Of a stretch of 64,000 bases of DNA, positions 10,441 to 35,362 are shown in pieces. The stretch's first letter is position 1, and every line of letters begins with the position of its first letter. The stretch spans positions 31,224 through 95,223 of the forward strand of contig JALHOW010000010.1 in the NCBI GenBank assembly GCA_022842785.1, in the 5' to 3' direction. A model generated the notes under the pieces. It saw only the letters and a list, made by a program, of their open reading frames with translations. It ran no database searches and was not told where the DNA came from. The position numbers and the translations under genes were made by a program. Source of the stretch: Hyphomicrobiaceae bacterium. GTDB taxonomy: Bacteria > Pseudomonadota > Alphaproteobacteria > Rhizobiales > Hyphomicrobiaceae.

Positions 10441-10525
<85 letters not shown>

Positions 10526-29422: not shown

Positions 29423-30631
29423 TCATGCGGCCGCCCCACTCGTCCTCAAGGCCGCTATCTCATTCTCGCTGAGCCCTGCCTCCCGCAGAATCACATCTGT
29501 GTGTTGGCCGAGGTCCGGGCCTGGGCCCGGTCGGCGAGGTGCAGCATGACCGATCTGGAACGGCGCCGCCAGTGTCTGCGGCATGCCGGGGGTGTCGGTC
29601 TCGACCACCGCGCGCGCGGCAATGGCCTGCGCGTCCTCCGGAATATCCTGCAGGCGATTGATGATCGAGTGTGGGACGCCTCGCGCTTTCAACATCCTGT
29701 TCCAGTGCGCGAACGGCCGCGTCCGGATGATGGGATCTAGGATCTCGCGCAGGGCCGCGGCATTGGCGTGGCGCGCTGCGCGCTCGACGAAACGAGGGTC
29801 CGTTGCCAGATCCGGCCGCTCGATCATTTCCAGGATGACGGGAAAGTCGCGCGTCTCGTTGGTGACGTTGATCTGGAGCCAGCGGTCGTCGGACGTCAGG
29901 TAGATGTTGGCAAGTGCCGAGCGGGGGCGATCGCGCGGCGGGCGATTGGGCAGGTAGGACCCGAGGAGTGCCGCCTGGGCATAGACGCCGTTCGACCATA
30001 GGCCGTTGGCGAGCAGGTTGCTGGCAACCCAGGTGCCCTTGCCGGTTCGCGCGCGGTCGATGAGTGCGATGAGAATGGCCGAGAGCAGCGCCATGGCCGA
30101 CGGACGGTCGCCCTGTGCCGGCAGCGCGAAGCCCGGTGGCTGACCTTCGAAGTGAGTCCCATCGAGCAGGCCCGAGCGGGCGAAGTAGGCGTTGCTGTCG
30201 TAGCCCGGCTGATCCTTGTCGCCGCCCTCCTCGCCGTAGCCCGAGAAGGACGCATAGATGAGCCGCGGATTGCGCGCCGAGACTTCCTCGTAGCTGAGGC
30301 GCAGGCGTGCGCGCACGGGGAAGGGGTAGTTCGTGATGAGGATGTCGGCCTGGTCGATCAGCCGGTCGAGGGCGGCGCGGCCCTGCGGGTTCTTCAGATC
30401 CAGCGCAATCGAACGCTTGTTCCGGGCGTCGAGGTGCCAGGGGTAGTTGACCTCGGACTTGGGAAAGCTCGTGAGATTGATGTTCCCGCGATGCGGATCG
30501 CCTTCTCCCGGCGGCTCCACCTTGATGACGTCGGCGCCGTAGTCGCCGAGGACGACGGCTGCGGCCGGTGCAGCAATGAACGAGCTGACGTCGAGCACGC
30601 GCAGTCCGTCGAGCGGGAGCGGGTTCGCCAT
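29423..30631 (-). CDS. CaiB/BaiF family CoA-transferase
   Basis: LDGLRVLD, LGDYGADVIKVEPP.EGD, ARNKRSIALDLK, GPDLGQHT. Confidence 0.92.
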   Translation of the reverse strand: MANPLPLDGLRVLDVSSFIAAPAAAVVLGDYGADVIKVEPPGEGDPHRGNINLTSFPKSEVNYPWHLDARNKRSIALDLKNPQGRAALDRLIDQADILITNYPFPVRARLRLSYEEVSARNPRLIYASFSGYGEEGGDKDQPGYDSNAYFARSGLLDGTHFEGQPPGFALPAQGDRPSAMALLSAILIALIDRARTGKGTWVASNLLANGLWSNGVYAQAALLGSYLPNRPPRDRPRSALANIYLTSDDRWLQINVTNETRDFPVILEMIERPDLATDPRFVERAARHANAAALREILDPIIRTRPFAHWNRMLKARGVPHSIINRLQDIPEDAQAIAARAVVETDTPGMPQTLAAPFQIGHAAPRRPGPGPDLGQHTDVILREAGLSENEIAALRTSGAAA

Positions 30632-30748
30632 TGGGGCCCTTCTTTTTGTCGGACGTTTGCCTCTGGCGGCGAGCTTAGCGGCGCTGTTCAGCGCTGCCTA
30701 GAGTGGCTACGCTGCGGAAAAGAACATGCAACCGGGAGGACAATCACG

Positions 30749-31564
30749 ATGAGCGCGATCAACGGAGACTGGCTGGGCCTTGGTGGGCGCGTAGCGGTCG
30801 TGACGGGAGCGGCCAGCGGCATCGGACGCGCCGCGGCTTACAGCCTATCGAGCGCCGGCGCGGCCGTTGCCCTGCTCGATATCAACATCGAAGGCGCCAA
30901 GGATGCCGCGCGTCAGATCGCGGAGACGGGTGGCAAGGCCATCGCCGTCGAGTGCGACACGACAAGTGAGGCGAGCATCGCGGCGGCGCGATCGCAGGTC
31001 GAGGCAGGGCTCGGCGGTGCCGACATCCTTGTGAACAACGCGGGTATCTTGCGGCCGGGCGGGCTCGATAAGCTCGCGCTCGCGGACTGGAACAAGATCC
31101 TCGCCGTGAATTTGACCGGCTACCTGCTCACGGCCCAGTCCTTCGGCGAGGGCATGCGTGAGCGCAAGCGCGGGGCGTTGGTGCACATCGCCTCGATCGC
31201 GGCGAGCGAGCCACAGCCGTATTCGGGCGCCTACAGCGCGGCCAAGACGGGCGTCGTCATGCTGTCCCGCCAGCTCGCTGTCGAGTGGGGCGCTCAGGGT
31301 GTGCGCTCGAATGTCGTCAGCCCGGGCTTTATCCGGACGCCACTGAGCGAAGGGTTCTATCAGGTGCCGGGCGTCGTCGAGGCGCGTTCGCGCGTCGTGC
31401 CGGTGGGGCGGGTTGGTACGCCGGAGGACATCGCCAACGCGGTGACGTTCCTCGCTTCGGACAAGGCCGCGTACGTCAGCGGATCGGAGTTGCTCGTCGA
31501 CGGCGGCGCCAACACCATCCTCATGGGGCAGGTACCCCGCCCGGGCTTCGAACGCCCGAGCTAA
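30749..31564 (+). CDS. Short-chain dehydrogenase/reductase
   Basis: TGAASGIG, LVNNAG, YSAAK, PG.IRT; GGAGGA RBS. Confidence 0.92.
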   Translation: MSAINGDWLGLGGRVAVVTGAASGIGRAAAYSLSSAGAAVALLDINIEGAKDAARQIAETGGKAIAVECDTTSEASIAAARSQVEAGLGGADILVNNAGILRPGGLDKLALADWNKILAVNLTGYLLTAQSFGEGMRERKRGALVHIASIAASEPQPYSGAYSAAKTGVVMLSRQLAVEWGAQGVRSNVVSPGFIRTPLSEGFYQVPGVVEARSRVVPVGRVGTPEDIANAVTFLASDKAAYVSGSELLVDGGANTILMGQVPRPGFERPS

Positions 31565-32640
31565 CGTCCCTTCTGTCCTCGCCGGCCGACCGCACCTTCG
31601 ATGAGGGCGGCGAGGCGGCCTTCGTCGCGGGCCTCGAACGTGAGCCGTATCGGCAGGGCGCGCGCCTGCGCATGGAGCTCGGCTAGAGGACCGGCGCCGC
31701 CAGCAAGACGCGCGCGGTCCTTCTCCGTGGTGACGAGCGTTGCGCCGTGCGCGCGCGCGAGTTCGAGAAGGCGGCTCGCATCAGCGGGCTTGAAGGCGTG
31801 GTGATCGGGAAAGGTGAGCGTCGCGACGGGGCGGGCGCCAAGCGCGGCGAGCGTTGCGAAAAAGCGATCCGGAACGCCGATGCCGGCGAAGGCGACGACC
31901 GGTCCGGAGGAAAGCCAGGCCGAGGCGCTCGCAGGAACGATCTGCGCTTCGAGCACGGGGCCCTCGAAGTCGTGGCGCAGGTTGGCGGCGAAATCGCTCT
32001 GGACCTGCAGTGTCCCTGTGCTGGAGCCGCGGTTGACGACGATGGCATCGACGAGGTCGAGCTGAAAGTCGAGCGGTGCCCGCAGCGGTCCGGCCGGCAT
32101 CACACGGCCGTTGCCCACACCGCGCGCGCCGTCGACGATGGCGATGGTGAGATCCTTCGCAAGGCCGGGGTTCTGCAGACCGTCGTCCATGATGATGACA
32201 TCGGCGGCGGGGCGGGCGCCGGACGCCGTGCTGGCCTCTGCGGCAATAGCGCGCGCGCCCGCTGCGCGATCGCGGCTGATCAGCGTCGGATGGGCAGCGG
32301 CAAGCAGCAGCGGTTCGTCGCCGACGTCTTCTGCGCGGTCACGCTCGGGATCGACCCAGTGAGGGCCAGACACGCGGCCGCCGTAGCCGCGCGAGAGGAA
32401 GGCGCTGGTCAAGCCCATGCCGCCGATAAGGTCGGCGATGGTGAGCGCGAGTGGCGTCTTGCCGGTGCCGCCCGCTGTGAAATTGCCGATGCAGATGACG
32501 GTGATGGGCGCGCGGTACGGCGTGGCCCGGGCGAAGCGCCGGCGCACCAGCCCGCCCCACAGCGCAGCCGCAGGTCCGAGCAGCCGAGGCACGATGCCGG
32601 GCGCCGTCTCATACCACCACGTTGGCTCGCGCATCGTCAC
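31561..32640 (-). CDS. lpxK: Tetraacyldisaccharide 4'-kinase
   Basis: IGNFTAGGTGKTP, LSRGYGG, GDEPLLL, MDDGLQN, FPDHH, TTEKD. Confidence 0.95.
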   Translation of the reverse strand: MTMREPTWWYETAPGIVPRLLGPAAALWGGLVRRRFARATPYRAPITVICIGNFTAGGTGKTPLALTIADLIGGMGLTSAFLSRGYGGRVSGPHWVDPERDRAEDVGDEPLLLAAAHPTLISRDRAAGARAIAAEASTASGARPAADVIIMDDGLQNPGLAKDLTIAIVDGARGVGNGRVMPAGPLRAPLDFQLDLVDAIVVNRGSSTGTLQVQSDFAANLRHDFEGPVLEAQIVPASASAWLSSGPVVAFAGIGVPDRFFATLAALGARPVATLTFPDHHAFKPADASRLLELARAHGATLVTTEKDRARLAGGAGPLAELHAQARALPIRLTFEARDEGRLAALIEGAVGRRGQKGR

Positions 32641-32744
32641 CGGTCGGCGTCCTCGTGCTCCTGTTCCGGCTGTCTCGGAACCAATTCGACCAAGGCCGCT
32701 TGTAGCAAGTTGGTGACAGTTTCACAGACCGTACAAAATGGGAT

Positions 32745-32772
32745 TTGACATGCGCTACGGCCGCTCTACAAG
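32745..32772 (+). promoter_or_regulatory. Sigma70-type promoter
   Basis: TTGACA at 32745-32750, CTACAA at 32766-32771. Confidence 0.6.
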
Positions 32773-32782
32773 CTCCGCGCAT

Positions 32783-32930
32783 CGGGACCTAAATAGTTCC
32801 GGGTTCGGGGGGAGTTGAACGTGGCTCCGCAAGGAAGCGGCCCGTTCGGCGTCTCTCGGGCGATTGTTCCCCTCCAAGACTGCGCGTCCATCATGATCCG
32901 CGAGACAGCGCGGGGTGGTGACTGGAGACT
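32783..32930 (+). ncRNA. Candidate structured 5' leader or sRNA upstream of SET gene (family unassigned)
   Basis: Starts just after the promoter; hairpin 32783-32801; long hairpin 32810-32857 with GCAA tetraloop; third hairpin ~32890-32920. Confidence 0.45.
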
Positions 32931-33042
32931 ACCTACGCATGTCCGCTAGGACACAATGCTCGCACTGCGGGGCCAAGCGCACCTTGCCCTCGATCACCTC
33001 AGTTTTCTCTCGAAAAATGCTGAATAGCTGGAGACAAGTATC

Positions 33043-33492
33043 ATGATGCTCGTCGCTACGTCCGTGCGTGCCAGCGCGATCGAAGGCGTTGGCGTATTTG
33101 CAGTGGACTTCATCCCGGCGGGGACGCCGATCTGGGCGCTCGACGAGCGCTTTGACAAGGTCTTCACCGAGGAAGAGGTCGCTAGCTTCCCGCAAAATGT
33201 GCAGGACTACTTCAATCGCTACGGCTATCCGCACATGGAGCGGGACGGCTTTGTCGTGCTCGAACTCGACAATGGCCGGTTCATGAACCACAGCCTGAGC
33301 CCGAATACGGACTTCACACGGCCGGACGTTGGCTACGCCATCGCCGATATCCATCCGGGTCAGGAGCTGATCTGCAACTACTTCGAGTTCGATCGCACGT
33401 TCCAGGGCTTCGATGCCCCGGCGGTCGCTGTCGAGCCAGCGTACGCCGTTCACGCGAATGGCTTGGGCGCTGGCATCAGCGCCAGCATCTGA
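33043..33492 (+). CDS. SET domain-containing protein (putative lysine methyltransferase)
   Basis: S.IEG.GVFA...I..GT.IW, GRFMNHS..PN, AIADI.PGQEL..NY. Confidence 0.9.
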   Translation: MMLVATSVRASAIEGVGVFAVDFIPAGTPIWALDERFDKVFTEEEVASFPQNVQDYFNRYGYPHMERDGFVVLELDNGRFMNHSLSPNTDFTRPDVGYAIADIHPGQELICNYFEFDRTFQGFDAPAVAVEPAYAVHANGLGAGISASI

Positions 33493-33769
33493 GTCGACGC
33501 GTCGCGGAAGGGGGCAGCCGGGGCCTTAGGCCCCGGTGCCGCCGCTGCGTTACAGCGTCCGTCCAGCCGGACAGTGGGCGCGTTTTCGCATTCATTTGGC
33601 ATGGCGCTGGCTGCCGTCCCTGCGGCTTTACGGGCGCGGGCTCACGACCAGTTCAATTGGCATCGGGCGCCGAAATGCCTTAATGCTTCGGCCCAATAAC
33701 GCTGGATCCGGCGTGTCCTCCCGACGAGGGGGAGTCGCTGGGTCGATTTAGGCCGTGAAGGAGAACGAC

Positions 33770-34468
33770 GTGACGGCGACGCCTTTTGCCCTGTTCGCGC
33801 GCAGCCTGAATCGGCGCGCATTCCTGATTGGTGCGACCAGCGCCGCAGCGCTCGCGACGGCTGCTGGTCTGACGCCGGCACTTGCTCAGCGGCGCTCTGC
33901 CGCTCCGGATGAAGTTTCGGTCGAGGCCCTGATGAAGCCCGGCGCGTTGCCGGAGCTGGCCGTCGGCAAGGCCGACGCGCCCGTTACGATCGTCGAGTAC
34001 GCATCGATGACGTGCGGGCACTGCGCCAATTTCCACAACACCGTTTATCCGGCACTCAAAGAGAAATATATCGACACCGGCAAGGTGCGCTTCATCCTGC
34101 GTGAGTTCCCGCTCGACAATCTCGCAGCGGCGGCCTCGATGCTTGCCCGGTGCGCCGGCGGCGATGCAACCCAGGCCATGATCAGCGCCCTCTTCAAGAC
34201 ACAGGACAAATGGGCGTTCGTCCGCGGCAACCCGGTGCCGGAGCTCTTCAAGATCGCTCAGCAGGCCGGCTTTACCCAGGAGCGTTTCGACACGTGCCTG
34301 AAGGACAACGCGACGCTCGACCAAATGATCTCCGCCCGCCAGCGGGCGAGCGATGAGTTCGGAGTCAACGCGACGCCGACGTTCTTCATCAACGGCAAGC
34401 GTCTTCGCGGGCGGTCGGACTCGCTCGAAGCTTTCGATCAGGCGCTCGCGCCCTTCCTCGGCGGCTGA
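33770..34468 (+). CDS. DsbA family thiol-disulfide oxidoreductase with Tat-like signal
   Basis: LNRRAFL signal; EYASMTCGHC, REFPLD, ATPTFFING. Confidence 0.9.
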   Translation: MTATPFALFARSLNRRAFLIGATSAAALATAAGLTPALAQRRSAAPDEVSVEALMKPGALPELAVGKADAPVTIVEYASMTCGHCANFHNTVYPALKEKYIDTGKVRFILREFPLDNLAAAASMLARCAGGDATQAMISALFKTQDKWAFVRGNPVPELFKIAQQAGFTQERFDTCLKDNATLDQMISARQRASDEFGVNATPTFFINGKRLRGRSDSLEAFDQALAPFLGG

Positions 34469-34504
34469 TACGCCGTGCGCACCCGCCGGGGAGCCGGGAC
34501 GTTG

Positions 34505-35362
34505 ATGCCGCGCGCGATGGCGAGGTTCACCACGAACCTTGTCCTGCTCGCCTCGGCCGTCGCGCTTGCAGGCTGCTCGGGCGATGCACTCAGCACGCTC
34601 GATCCATCGCGCCCGGTGGGCATGACCCAGGAAACCGCGGCCGTCGGCGTTTCAGCGCAGCCAAAGGCGCCCGCCTTCGATCCTTTCTCCGACAGTCCAG
34701 TGACGTCGGTGCCCATGCGTCAGGTCATCGATAACCCGACGCTCGCCGAGGTGATGCGCCCGGGCCCACTGCCGGAATTCTCGATCGGTAGCCAGGATGC
34801 CCCGGTCACGATCATCAAGTACGCCTCTCTGACCTGCCCCTTCTGCCGCCGCTTTCAGGCGGAGGTTTTCCCGGTCCTGAAGCGCGATTACATCGACCGC
34901 GGGAAGGTCCGTTTCATCATTCGCGAGTTTCCCATCGGCAAATCCAGCGGCATGGCGACCATAGCGCTGCGCTGCGCCCCCATGGACCGCTACCTTGAGC
35001 TGTACGGGCGCTATCTTTCCACGCAGGCGCAGTGGGTTTCCCAGGAAGTTCGGATCGAGCCGATCCTGAAGGTTGCACAAGGTGTTGGCTTGTCGGCGGC
35101 GCAGTTTGACAGCTGCCGCCAGAATCAAGGCATGATCGGCGCCCTGAACCAGGTGAAAGACCGTGGTCGGGAGCTTGGGGTCATTGGGACGCCGAATTTC
35201 TTCATCAACGGCCAGCTCGTGAAGAAGACGCTGGATCTGGCCGAGCTTCGGGCGATCATCGATCCATTGATCTCGGGCCCTGCGCTAGTGTCCCGATCCC
35301 GAGGTTCGCCTGACCTCGATGCTGGCGTCTCGAGCGAACCTCGGAATCAAAAGGGACACTAG
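34505..35362 (+). CDS. DsbA family lipoprotein
   Basis: Lipobox ALAGC; YASLTCPFC, REFP, GTPNFFING. Confidence 0.88.
   Translation: MPRAMARFTTNLVLLASAVALAGCSGDALSTLDPSRPVGMTQETAAVGVSAQPKAPAFDPFSDSPVTSVPMRQVIDNPTLAEVMRPGPLPEFSIGSQDAPVTIIKYASLTCPFCRRFQAEVFPVLKRDYIDRGKVRFIIREFPIGKSSGMATIALRCAPMDRYLELYGRYLSTQAQWVSQEVRIEPILKVAQGVGLSAAQFDSCRQNQGMIGALNQVKDRGRELGVIGTPNFFINGQLVKKTLDLAELRAIIDPLISGPALVSRSRGSPDLDAGVSSEPRNQKGH

Follow-up and report, generated by a model that had tools for sequence, protein, structure and literature searches.

A conserved, structured mRNA leader with a segment complementary to the start codon precedes a SET-domain methyltransferase gene in one genus of Hyphomicrobiaceae

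The SET-domain methyltransferase gene (hereafter SET) in the 64,000-nucleotide stretch of DNA analysed here (the window) is preceded by a conserved, structured mRNA element on the plus strand that lies outside the described RNA families. This leader probably controls the translation of SET, and the reading that we favour, with a probability of roughly 0.45, is that it acts in cis as a 5′ leader in which an upstream segment would occlude the start codon. The feature expected of start occlusion, a leader segment that is both complementary to the translation start and conserved, was found: the segment CAUCAUGAU is the perfect 9-nt complement of AUCAUGAUG (33040–33048), start codon included, and the complementarity is kept in all 19 distinct leader sequences that we collected.

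SET and the divergently oriented lpxK gene are separated by a spacer of 402 nt in this uncultured genus of Hyphomicrobiaceae, and the SET start (AUG, 33043–33045) is confirmed by an MMLV N-terminus that is kept across orthologues. Two tandem genes for DsbA-like thioredoxin-fold proteins (237 and 295 aa, 33755–35362) follow SET on the same strand. Beyond lpxK, a plus-strand open reading frame of 470 aa (30152–31564) has a short-chain dehydrogenase domain confined to residues 213–454, and its first ~160 codons overlap a CoA-transferase gene on the minus strand (29423–30631); the true start of this frame probably lies far 3′ of 30152. The features of the SET upstream region are collected in Table 1.

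Table 1. Features of the lpxK/SET spacer and its flanking genes, in coordinates of the window.
Feature	Position	Strand	Conservation or support
lpxK	31561–32640	minus	Pfam LpxK, 6.5e-86
Upstream block GCTTGTAGCAAGTTGGTGACAG ... CAAAATGGGA	32697–32743		(near-)invariant columns, 13 genomes
Promoter-like site	32744–32771	plus	hexamers kept across the genus
P1 hairpin, CGGGAC / GTTCCG, 6–7 bp	32783–32801	plus	folds and compensatory changes
P2/P3 long hairpin	32803–32861	plus	same architecture in 12/12 folds
Linker with pyrimidine tract UUCCCCUCCA (32867–32876)	32862–32888	plus	tract semi-conserved
'Anti-start' element CAUCAUGAU	32889–32897	plus	UCAUGA invariant, 19/19
P5 hairpin, outer GCG...CGC, inner GGUGG/CUACC	32908–32938	plus	covariation
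Open frame, AUG 32939 to UGA overlapping SET AUG	32939–33046	plus	35 codons here
P6 hairpin, UGUCC-GNNA-GGACA	32940–32953	plus	stem invariant
P7 hairpin, CGGGG(C)CAAG / CUUG(C)CCUCG, variable 5-nt loop	32968–32992	plus	98% of cells pair
C/U-rich tail GAUCACCUC..UUUUCUCUC..GAAAAAUG	32993–33019	plus	length variable, indels and substitutions
RBS block CUGAAUAGCUGGAGACAAGUAUCAUGAUG	33020–33048	plus	invariant in 19/19 except one A/U site
SET-domain methyltransferase gene, 149 aa	33043–33492	plus	Pfam SET, 1.3e-10

Facing away from lpxK, the promoter-like site consists of TTTGACA (−35, 32744–32750) and CTACAA (−10, 32766–32771) with a spacer of 15–16 nt. Both hexamers are invariant in 13 of 13 genomes, save for CTACAT in two, and it is because TTTGACA and CTACA(A/T) are invariant across the genus that we call a promoter here; a simple sigma-70 scan of the strict E. 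coli type did not call the site. A preliminary description of this DNA had spoken of a strong promoter; its −35 hexamer TTGACA does lie at 32745–32750. The putative transcription start, placed from the promoter-like site at ~32778–32781, together with the SET start at 33043 gives a leader of ~262–265 nt; that description had put it at "about 270 nt". Inspection by eye for a sigma-54 site or a promoter within the leader showed no conserved spacing that fits.

The 47 nucleotides at 32697–32743, just upstream of the −35 hexamer, are conserved as given in Table 1, while the adjoining spacer is only 66% identical. This block may be an operator, a UP-like site or the divergent lpxK promoter, or may be a regulator site common to both divergent genes. 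It holds a GTGA..TCAC inverted repeat, and a second CTACAAGC lies within it on the minus strand, identical to the −10 region of the leader.

BLAST matched the lpxK/SET spacer in 12 of the 13 genus genomes, with identities from 94% down to 68%, and gave zero matches in 47 other genera. A pattern scan of metagenomes added 11 further contigs, bringing the total to the 19 distinct leader sequences, and in the genus genomes and the contigs alike the spacer always lies between lpxK and SET. Covariance models of the 5′ domain (R1) and the 3′ domain (R2) gave the same picture: R1 found one copy in the window's own genome, and both models recovered the element from each of the five genus genomes sampled, while neither had a match in 145 family genomes that represent 50 other genera. 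R2 also found nothing in 150 genomes of the order, and a search ahead of 69 SET orthologues belonging to other clades gave no match at the expected place. Within this set of genomes and loci, the leader is confined to one genus, where it occurs only before SET.

A search of the whole window against Rfam 15 at gathering thresholds returned a tRNA at 10441–10522 only, and the region 32600–33100 had zero matches even at E<=10, which excludes speF (RF00518), alpha-r45, SAM-II, SAM-V, SAM/SAH, SAH and ROSE as families. The leads named in the preliminary description, a speF/alpha-r45-type leader or a SAM-sensing element, thus fall away as family assignments, whereas the Rfam and covariation checks that it had proposed came out in favour of a conserved element, with zero Rfam matches and with both conservation and covariation present.

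Conservation of the leader is uneven. The invariant blocks comprise the −35 and −10 hexamers, UCAUGA, GGAGAC (18/19), AUGUCCG..AGGAC, CAAG..CUUG and the whole RBS, and mean pairwise identity is 0.75 overall, 0.80–0.84 in the 3′ half and only 0.57 midway along the long hairpin; for comparison, it is 0.72 for the fourfold sites in SET and 0.66 for neutral spacer. Sequence constraint is therefore moderate and patchy, and the least conserved stretch stays base-paired. To the alignment of 19 sequences we fitted a hand-assembled model that comprises P1, P2/P3, P5, P6, P7 and the long-range helix between CAUCAUGAU and the SET start; standard pairs occupy 90.7% of its cells, against 33–47% with slid partners. 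Covariation over the whole model is 0.160, against at most 0.090 with slid partners, and was reached by 0 of 500 shuffles, a test that shared ancestry inflates since the sequences come from one genus and have an effective number of 1.5–3.3. The folding energy of the leader as a whole is ordinary (z −0.94; opposite strand, z −1.13), so the case for structure is made by comparison and not by stability.

In each of 12 divergent homologues the 5′ domain (32779–32865) folds into one and the same pair of hairpins, with z-scores between −1.7 and −3.8 in 10 of the 12 (full range −0.9 to −3.8), and after realignment with the covariance model its covariation is 0.225 against at most 0.134. P1 was predicted in 9 of 12 homologues, the other three having variant 5′ hairpins; 86–91% of its cells pair, with compensatory AU->GC and GC->AU changes. 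The long hairpin rises from a basal P2 helix of 10 bp, in which the G-run side (32803–32812) pairs with UCUCUCGGGC (32852–32861). Pairs form in 92% of the cells of this helix; it shows numerous changes between GU and GC or AU and a GC->CG exchange at its base, and four of its ten pairs are mostly G-U (U-G in 14/19 and 17/19 sequences, G-U in 11/19 and 14/19). Frequent G-U pairs, those of basal P2 included, assign the RNA to the plus strand. The middle of P2, here GTTGAACG (32814–32821) with CGTTCGGC (32843–32850), is variable and irregular and has the lowest sequence identity (57%), yet remains self-complementary, with compensatory changes. At the apex, the helix CCGC/GCGG (32827–32830/32837–32840) covaries by CG->UA at two pairs, with the variants CUGC/GCAG and CCGU/ACGG, around a variable loop of 4–6 nt. 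P2 was also considered as an attenuator and rejected for want of an adjacent U-run.

Most of the pairings given for this domain in the preliminary description hold up. The hairpin CGGGAC (32783–32788)/GTTCCG (32796–32801) lies where it had been placed and pairs, and the proposed pairing of the G-run (32807–32814) with CTCTC (32853–32857) is confirmed: it makes up the base of P2, paired in the 92% of cells mentioned above. The stem said to be capped by a GCAA tetraloop was right as regards the pairing of GTTGAACG with CGTTCGGC, but a GCAA tetraloop does not cap it and is not conserved; the comparison supports CCGC/GCGG with a variable loop. A second partner had also been proposed for the G-run, so that the leader would switch between the two. 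The segment in question, TTCCCCTC, does sit at 32867–32874 as first placed, and the pyrimidine tract of the linker to which it belongs could pair with the G-run or with the UGGAG of either SD copy. However, the pairing of the G-run with UUCCCCUC is compatible with 84% of cells, which does not stand out from the 72–81% of slid partners, and its covariation is within that of shuffles; comparative support for a switch between two G-run partners was not found.

In the 3′ domain, P5 covaries (0.203 against 0.141 shuffled, 0/500), with compensatory GC->AU and GU->CG changes. Its loop displays CUGGAGAC (32922–32929), a second copy of the SD 8-mer of SET, and the GGAGAC of this loop is invariant in 18 of the 19 sequences. 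P6 and P7 are nearly invariant and are backed only by changes of the G-U type, the GNNA loop of P6 and a mismatch of P7 that turns into a pair: all cells of P6 pair (100%) and its loop is confined to GNNA (GCUA, GCCA, GUCA, GAUA, GUAA), and P7 shows GU->AU/GC changes as well as an internal C-C mismatch that has become C-G or G-C in two lineages. Folding of the 3′ domain by itself favours a long-range alternative to P6, UCCGCGAGACA with UGUCCGCUAGGA; the local P6 is preferred overall, and the alternative was set aside as its 5′ partner is not kept in three genomes (G010, G012 and G013). In some species the SD is predicted to pair with the C/U-rich tail that follows P7. Within this tail, the stretch GAUCACCUC..UUUCU (32994–33015) resembles the 3′ end of 16S rRNA, which is near-universally GAUCACCUCCUUUCU, and the version in G010 is GAUCAUCCUCUUUCU. 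The idea that the tail GAUCACCUC imitates the 16S 3′ end was not retained, as the likeness is not kept in deep-branching species; in the window's own genome the 16S end is unassembled.

The RBS block that closes the leader contains the SD GGAGAC (33030–33035) and the SET AUG. Both 8-mers of this RBS, CUGGAGAC at the SD and AUCAUGAU at the start site, are duplicated in the leader; as AUCAUGAU is palindromic, the anti-start segment doubles as another copy of this start-site 8-mer. ATCATGAT and CTGGAGAC each have three occurrences in the 64-kb window, two of them here. A complement to the start of at least 9 nt arose in 0.95% of dinucleotide shuffles (P ~0.0095), and the upstream side varies only by an A->G change, found in four sequences, which leaves a G-U pair. 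The long-range helix 32889–32897/33040–33048 shows no compensatory change, both sides being almost invariant, and coding and RBS function place further constraints on its start side. When the 3′ domain is folded together with the RBS, the helix has a predicted mean pair probability of ~0.7. In full-length leaders the predicted probability is bimodal between species, ranging from 0 to 0.99, with values of 0.4–0.99 in 9 of the 19; in the other predicted state the SET AUG lies in the loop of a local hairpin. These predictions would fit a leader balanced between a closed and an open state.

We propose that the SET mRNA would be transcribed from the TTGACA/CTACAA promoter-like site with a leader of ~265 nt that folds into two domains, a 5′ domain made of P1 and P2/P3 and a 3′ domain made of P5, P6 and P7. 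CAUCAUGAU, just 5′ of P5, would pair with AUCAUGAUG at the SET start, and as this helix would close the 3′ domain and hide the start, translation would be held down until the helix is opened. Opening could come about through an alternative local fold, through ribosomes that load at the SD copy in the P5 loop, read a short frame and stop at the SET RBS, or through a further factor. Two other pairings were tried and rejected. A local hairpin that would hide the anti-start segment (fold X, 122–137/146–163 of alignment A3) pairs in 86% of cells with covariation within that of shuffles, and deep-branching species use different registers for it. A pairing of CUCCGCGC (32773–32780) with the SD, taken from RNAalifold, has both sides invariant and an upstream side that probably lies 5′ of the transcription start.

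UCAUGA is palindromic, and its pair of copies (e.g. as the two ATCATGAT palindromes) might just as well be bound on the DNA by a dimeric regulator, and the whole region might be conserved at the DNA level or incidentally, as promoter and operator sites of lpxK and SET with hairpins that have no regulatory role. Protein sites typically look like such palindromic 8-mers, the species are close relatives, the identity of the leader (0.75) exceeds that of fourfold sites (0.72) only a little, and whole-leader stability is not significant on either strand. Against this reading, P1, P2/P3 and P5 carry compensatory changes and changes that preserve pairing through G-U, strand-specific G-U pairs are frequent, the middle of P2 diverges yet keeps its pairing, and the conserved blocks lie 110–260 nt 3′ of the promoter, which is unusual for operators. 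We consider conservation at the DNA level alone unlikely.

An sRNA of ~215 nt, independent or processed, that ends at or after P7 and acts in trans, with SET expressed by read-through or separately, would account for the conserved promoter-like site, for the stable and conserved P7 and for the U/C-rich run 12 nt after it. However, no terminator-like site was found in 32500–33200, and P7 was rejected as a terminator because it has no adjacent U-run, the run that follows being set apart from the stem. The element is present in one copy per genome, always fixed to SET, and its conservation continues unbroken into the RBS. The promoter together with a terminator or defined 3′ end that would mark an sRNA gene was accordingly not found as a pair, and with no terminator an independent sRNA is unlikely. 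The RBS block begins 27 nt past P7, which leaves no room for a separate SET promoter, and this, combined with the lack of a terminator, makes a cis-acting leader the simplest reading. Of the two possibilities raised in the preliminary description, a cis-regulatory RNA switch or an sRNA, the conserved structured plus-strand element is thus upheld, its working as a switch is plausible, and the sRNA is not supported.

Within the cis-acting leader, the open frame that starts at AUG 32939 deserves separate consideration. This AUG, found in 18 of the 19 sequences, sits 9 nt 3′ of the SD copy in the P5 loop, and the frame, 13–35 codons long across relatives, stops in the invariant RBS block in 18 of 19, at most ~30 nt away from the SET AUG; in the window it ends in an AUGA overlap with the SET start, one of three stops used. 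The stretch CUGAAUAGCUGGAGACAAGUAUCAUGA (33020–33046) has a stop in every frame (UGA, UAG and a UGA that overlaps the SET AUG), and the 80 nt 5′ of the RBS block are nearly stop-free in all frames. As the three leader frames are equally stop-poor, the openness of this one is uninformative. A conserved leader peptide or small protein was ruled out by frame-shifting indels (G012, G006), a premature stop at codon 14 (G009) and variable sites that are distributed 14/13/11 over the codon positions, with no third-position excess; the C-termini vary as well. A second frame, from AUG 32892, was discarded since it has no SD and the frame is not kept. The frame at 32939 may nevertheless be translated, though unconstrained as a protein.

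Its translation could even be the main point of the leader, if reading an arbitrary frame of 13–35 codons unfolds the SET RBS and the 5′ domain tunes initiation of the upstream frame. Consistent with this, the SET SD 8-mer stands at a workable distance from AUG 32939 in 18 of 19 sequences, nearly all frames (18/19) end close to the SET AUG, and the one sequence without the SD copy, M096, also has GUG in place of the AUG. By contrast, the indels and the early stop, the low stop content of all frames and the even spread of variable sites argue the other way, and changes cluster in hairpin loops, as RNA constraint predicts. We regard coupling to this frame as the main function as doubtful.

A putative riboswitch, in which one domain would serve as an aptamer, for example for SAM or SAH, and binding would shift the start-codon helix, could make use of the several helices, the invariant joining regions, an expression platform over the start codon and a predicted bistability that differs between species; the downstream SET enzyme uses SAM as its cofactor, with SAH as the product. 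Of the general marks of a riboswitch, a covarying multi-helix fold was found (P1, P2/P3 and P5, within one genus), but recurrence across lineages or related genes was not. Validated classes usually span many taxa and genes, and riboswitches normally govern genes of synthesis or transport and not consumer enzymes. The leader, however, has no match to an Rfam riboswitch class even at E<=10, occurs in one genus ahead of one gene, and precedes a consumer enzyme, which makes a riboswitch distinctly unlikely.

Start occlusion by CAUCAUGAU, our preferred reading, has a more elaborate and distinctly unlikely extension, in which the leader would be a bistable translational switch of a new class that mimics its own RBS, with a decoy SD in the P5 loop and a palindromic start copy that pairs with the genuine AUG, and is set by a metabolite such as SAM or SAH, by the SET enzyme or by its substrate. 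If this were true, it would be the first riboregulation of a bacterial SET-domain protein methyltransferase, and the separate SET leaders in other alphaproteobacterial clades would be analogous devices.

Conserved sequences peculiar to each clade lie upstream of the SET orthologues of at least three other clades of alphaproteobacteria. An Rfam search of 12 SET loci from other clades at E<=1 gave nothing relevant. In a Rhodomicrobium-like group (group A; loci L027, L030, L031 and L034–L087, ~1285–1512), a leader of ~215 nt with its own helices follows TTGCAA-N17-AATCAT. Among these helices are a hairpin that covaries, GUUGC/GCAAC, and a closing helix, GUGAG/CUCAC, and the CCUC 5′ of a CGCGGCC/GGCCGUG stem can pair with the loop GAGG; a compensatory CCUU/GAAG change in L035 suggests an H-type pseudoknot. 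This leader may be an RNA motif that has so far gone undescribed. Homology between it and the leader studied here was rejected, a global alignment of the consensus sequences scoring like shuffled controls (z −0.07), and neither nhmmer at E<=1 nor model R2 gave a match at the expected place; strings that by eye appeared common to both (CAAUGC, AUCA(A)CCUCA, GAGAC..CAGC) did not hold up. In Sphingomonadaceae (L029, L033, L040, L047, L059, L079, L089, L090, ~1440–1500), a hairpin directly 5′ of the SET SD appears by eye to covary from genus to genus (GGGUGC/GCACCC, GGCGC/GCGCC, GAGCGC/GCGCUU). The SET loci of Methyloceanibacter have, also by eye, a separate conserved block, ACCGCAUGAG... The presence of conserved SET leaders in several clades, none of them in Rfam, suggests a recurring regulatory theme that has not been described.

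To our knowledge, bacterial SET-domain methyltransferases are poorly understood, and we know of nothing on their control in free-living bacteria; a literature search on the regulation of bacterial SET genes gave nothing relevant. The conserved structured leader is a first hint of tight post-transcriptional regulation of SET, and it offers defined nucleotides for testing, namely 32889–32897, the P5 loop and AUG 32939. With a range of only one uncultured genus, the leader is of limited general importance unless its signal is found.

Several described systems resemble the leader in part. With the speF leader and alpha-r45 (SmrC45) it shares the character of a structured intergenic element of alphaproteobacteria; in contrast to speF, the gene 3′ of it encodes a SET methyltransferase and not ornithine decarboxylase, and it has no Rfam match. 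With SAM-II (RF00521), SAM-V, SAM/SAH and SAH riboswitches it has in common a structured leader, a SAM-linked gene and a start that can be sequestered. Unlike those riboswitches, it has five hairpins over 265 nt with no covariance-model match at E<=10, and it is found in one genus before a SAM-using enzyme and not a gene of the SAM cycle. In leader-ORF coupling, translation of a short upstream frame unfolds a downstream RBS, and here too an SD and an AUG lie inside the leader and the frame ends in an AUGA overlap, whereas this frame differs from species to species and is free of coding constraint. The 5′ UTR of E. coli rpoS is a long, self-inhibitory leader whose translation start is kept closed by pairing to a segment further 5′ until that helix is opened. 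The SET leader is like it in having several hundred nucleotides and an upstream segment complementary to the start region, and differs from it in having no sequence or Rfam relation to rpoS and in carrying duplicates of both its SD and its start-site 8-mers.
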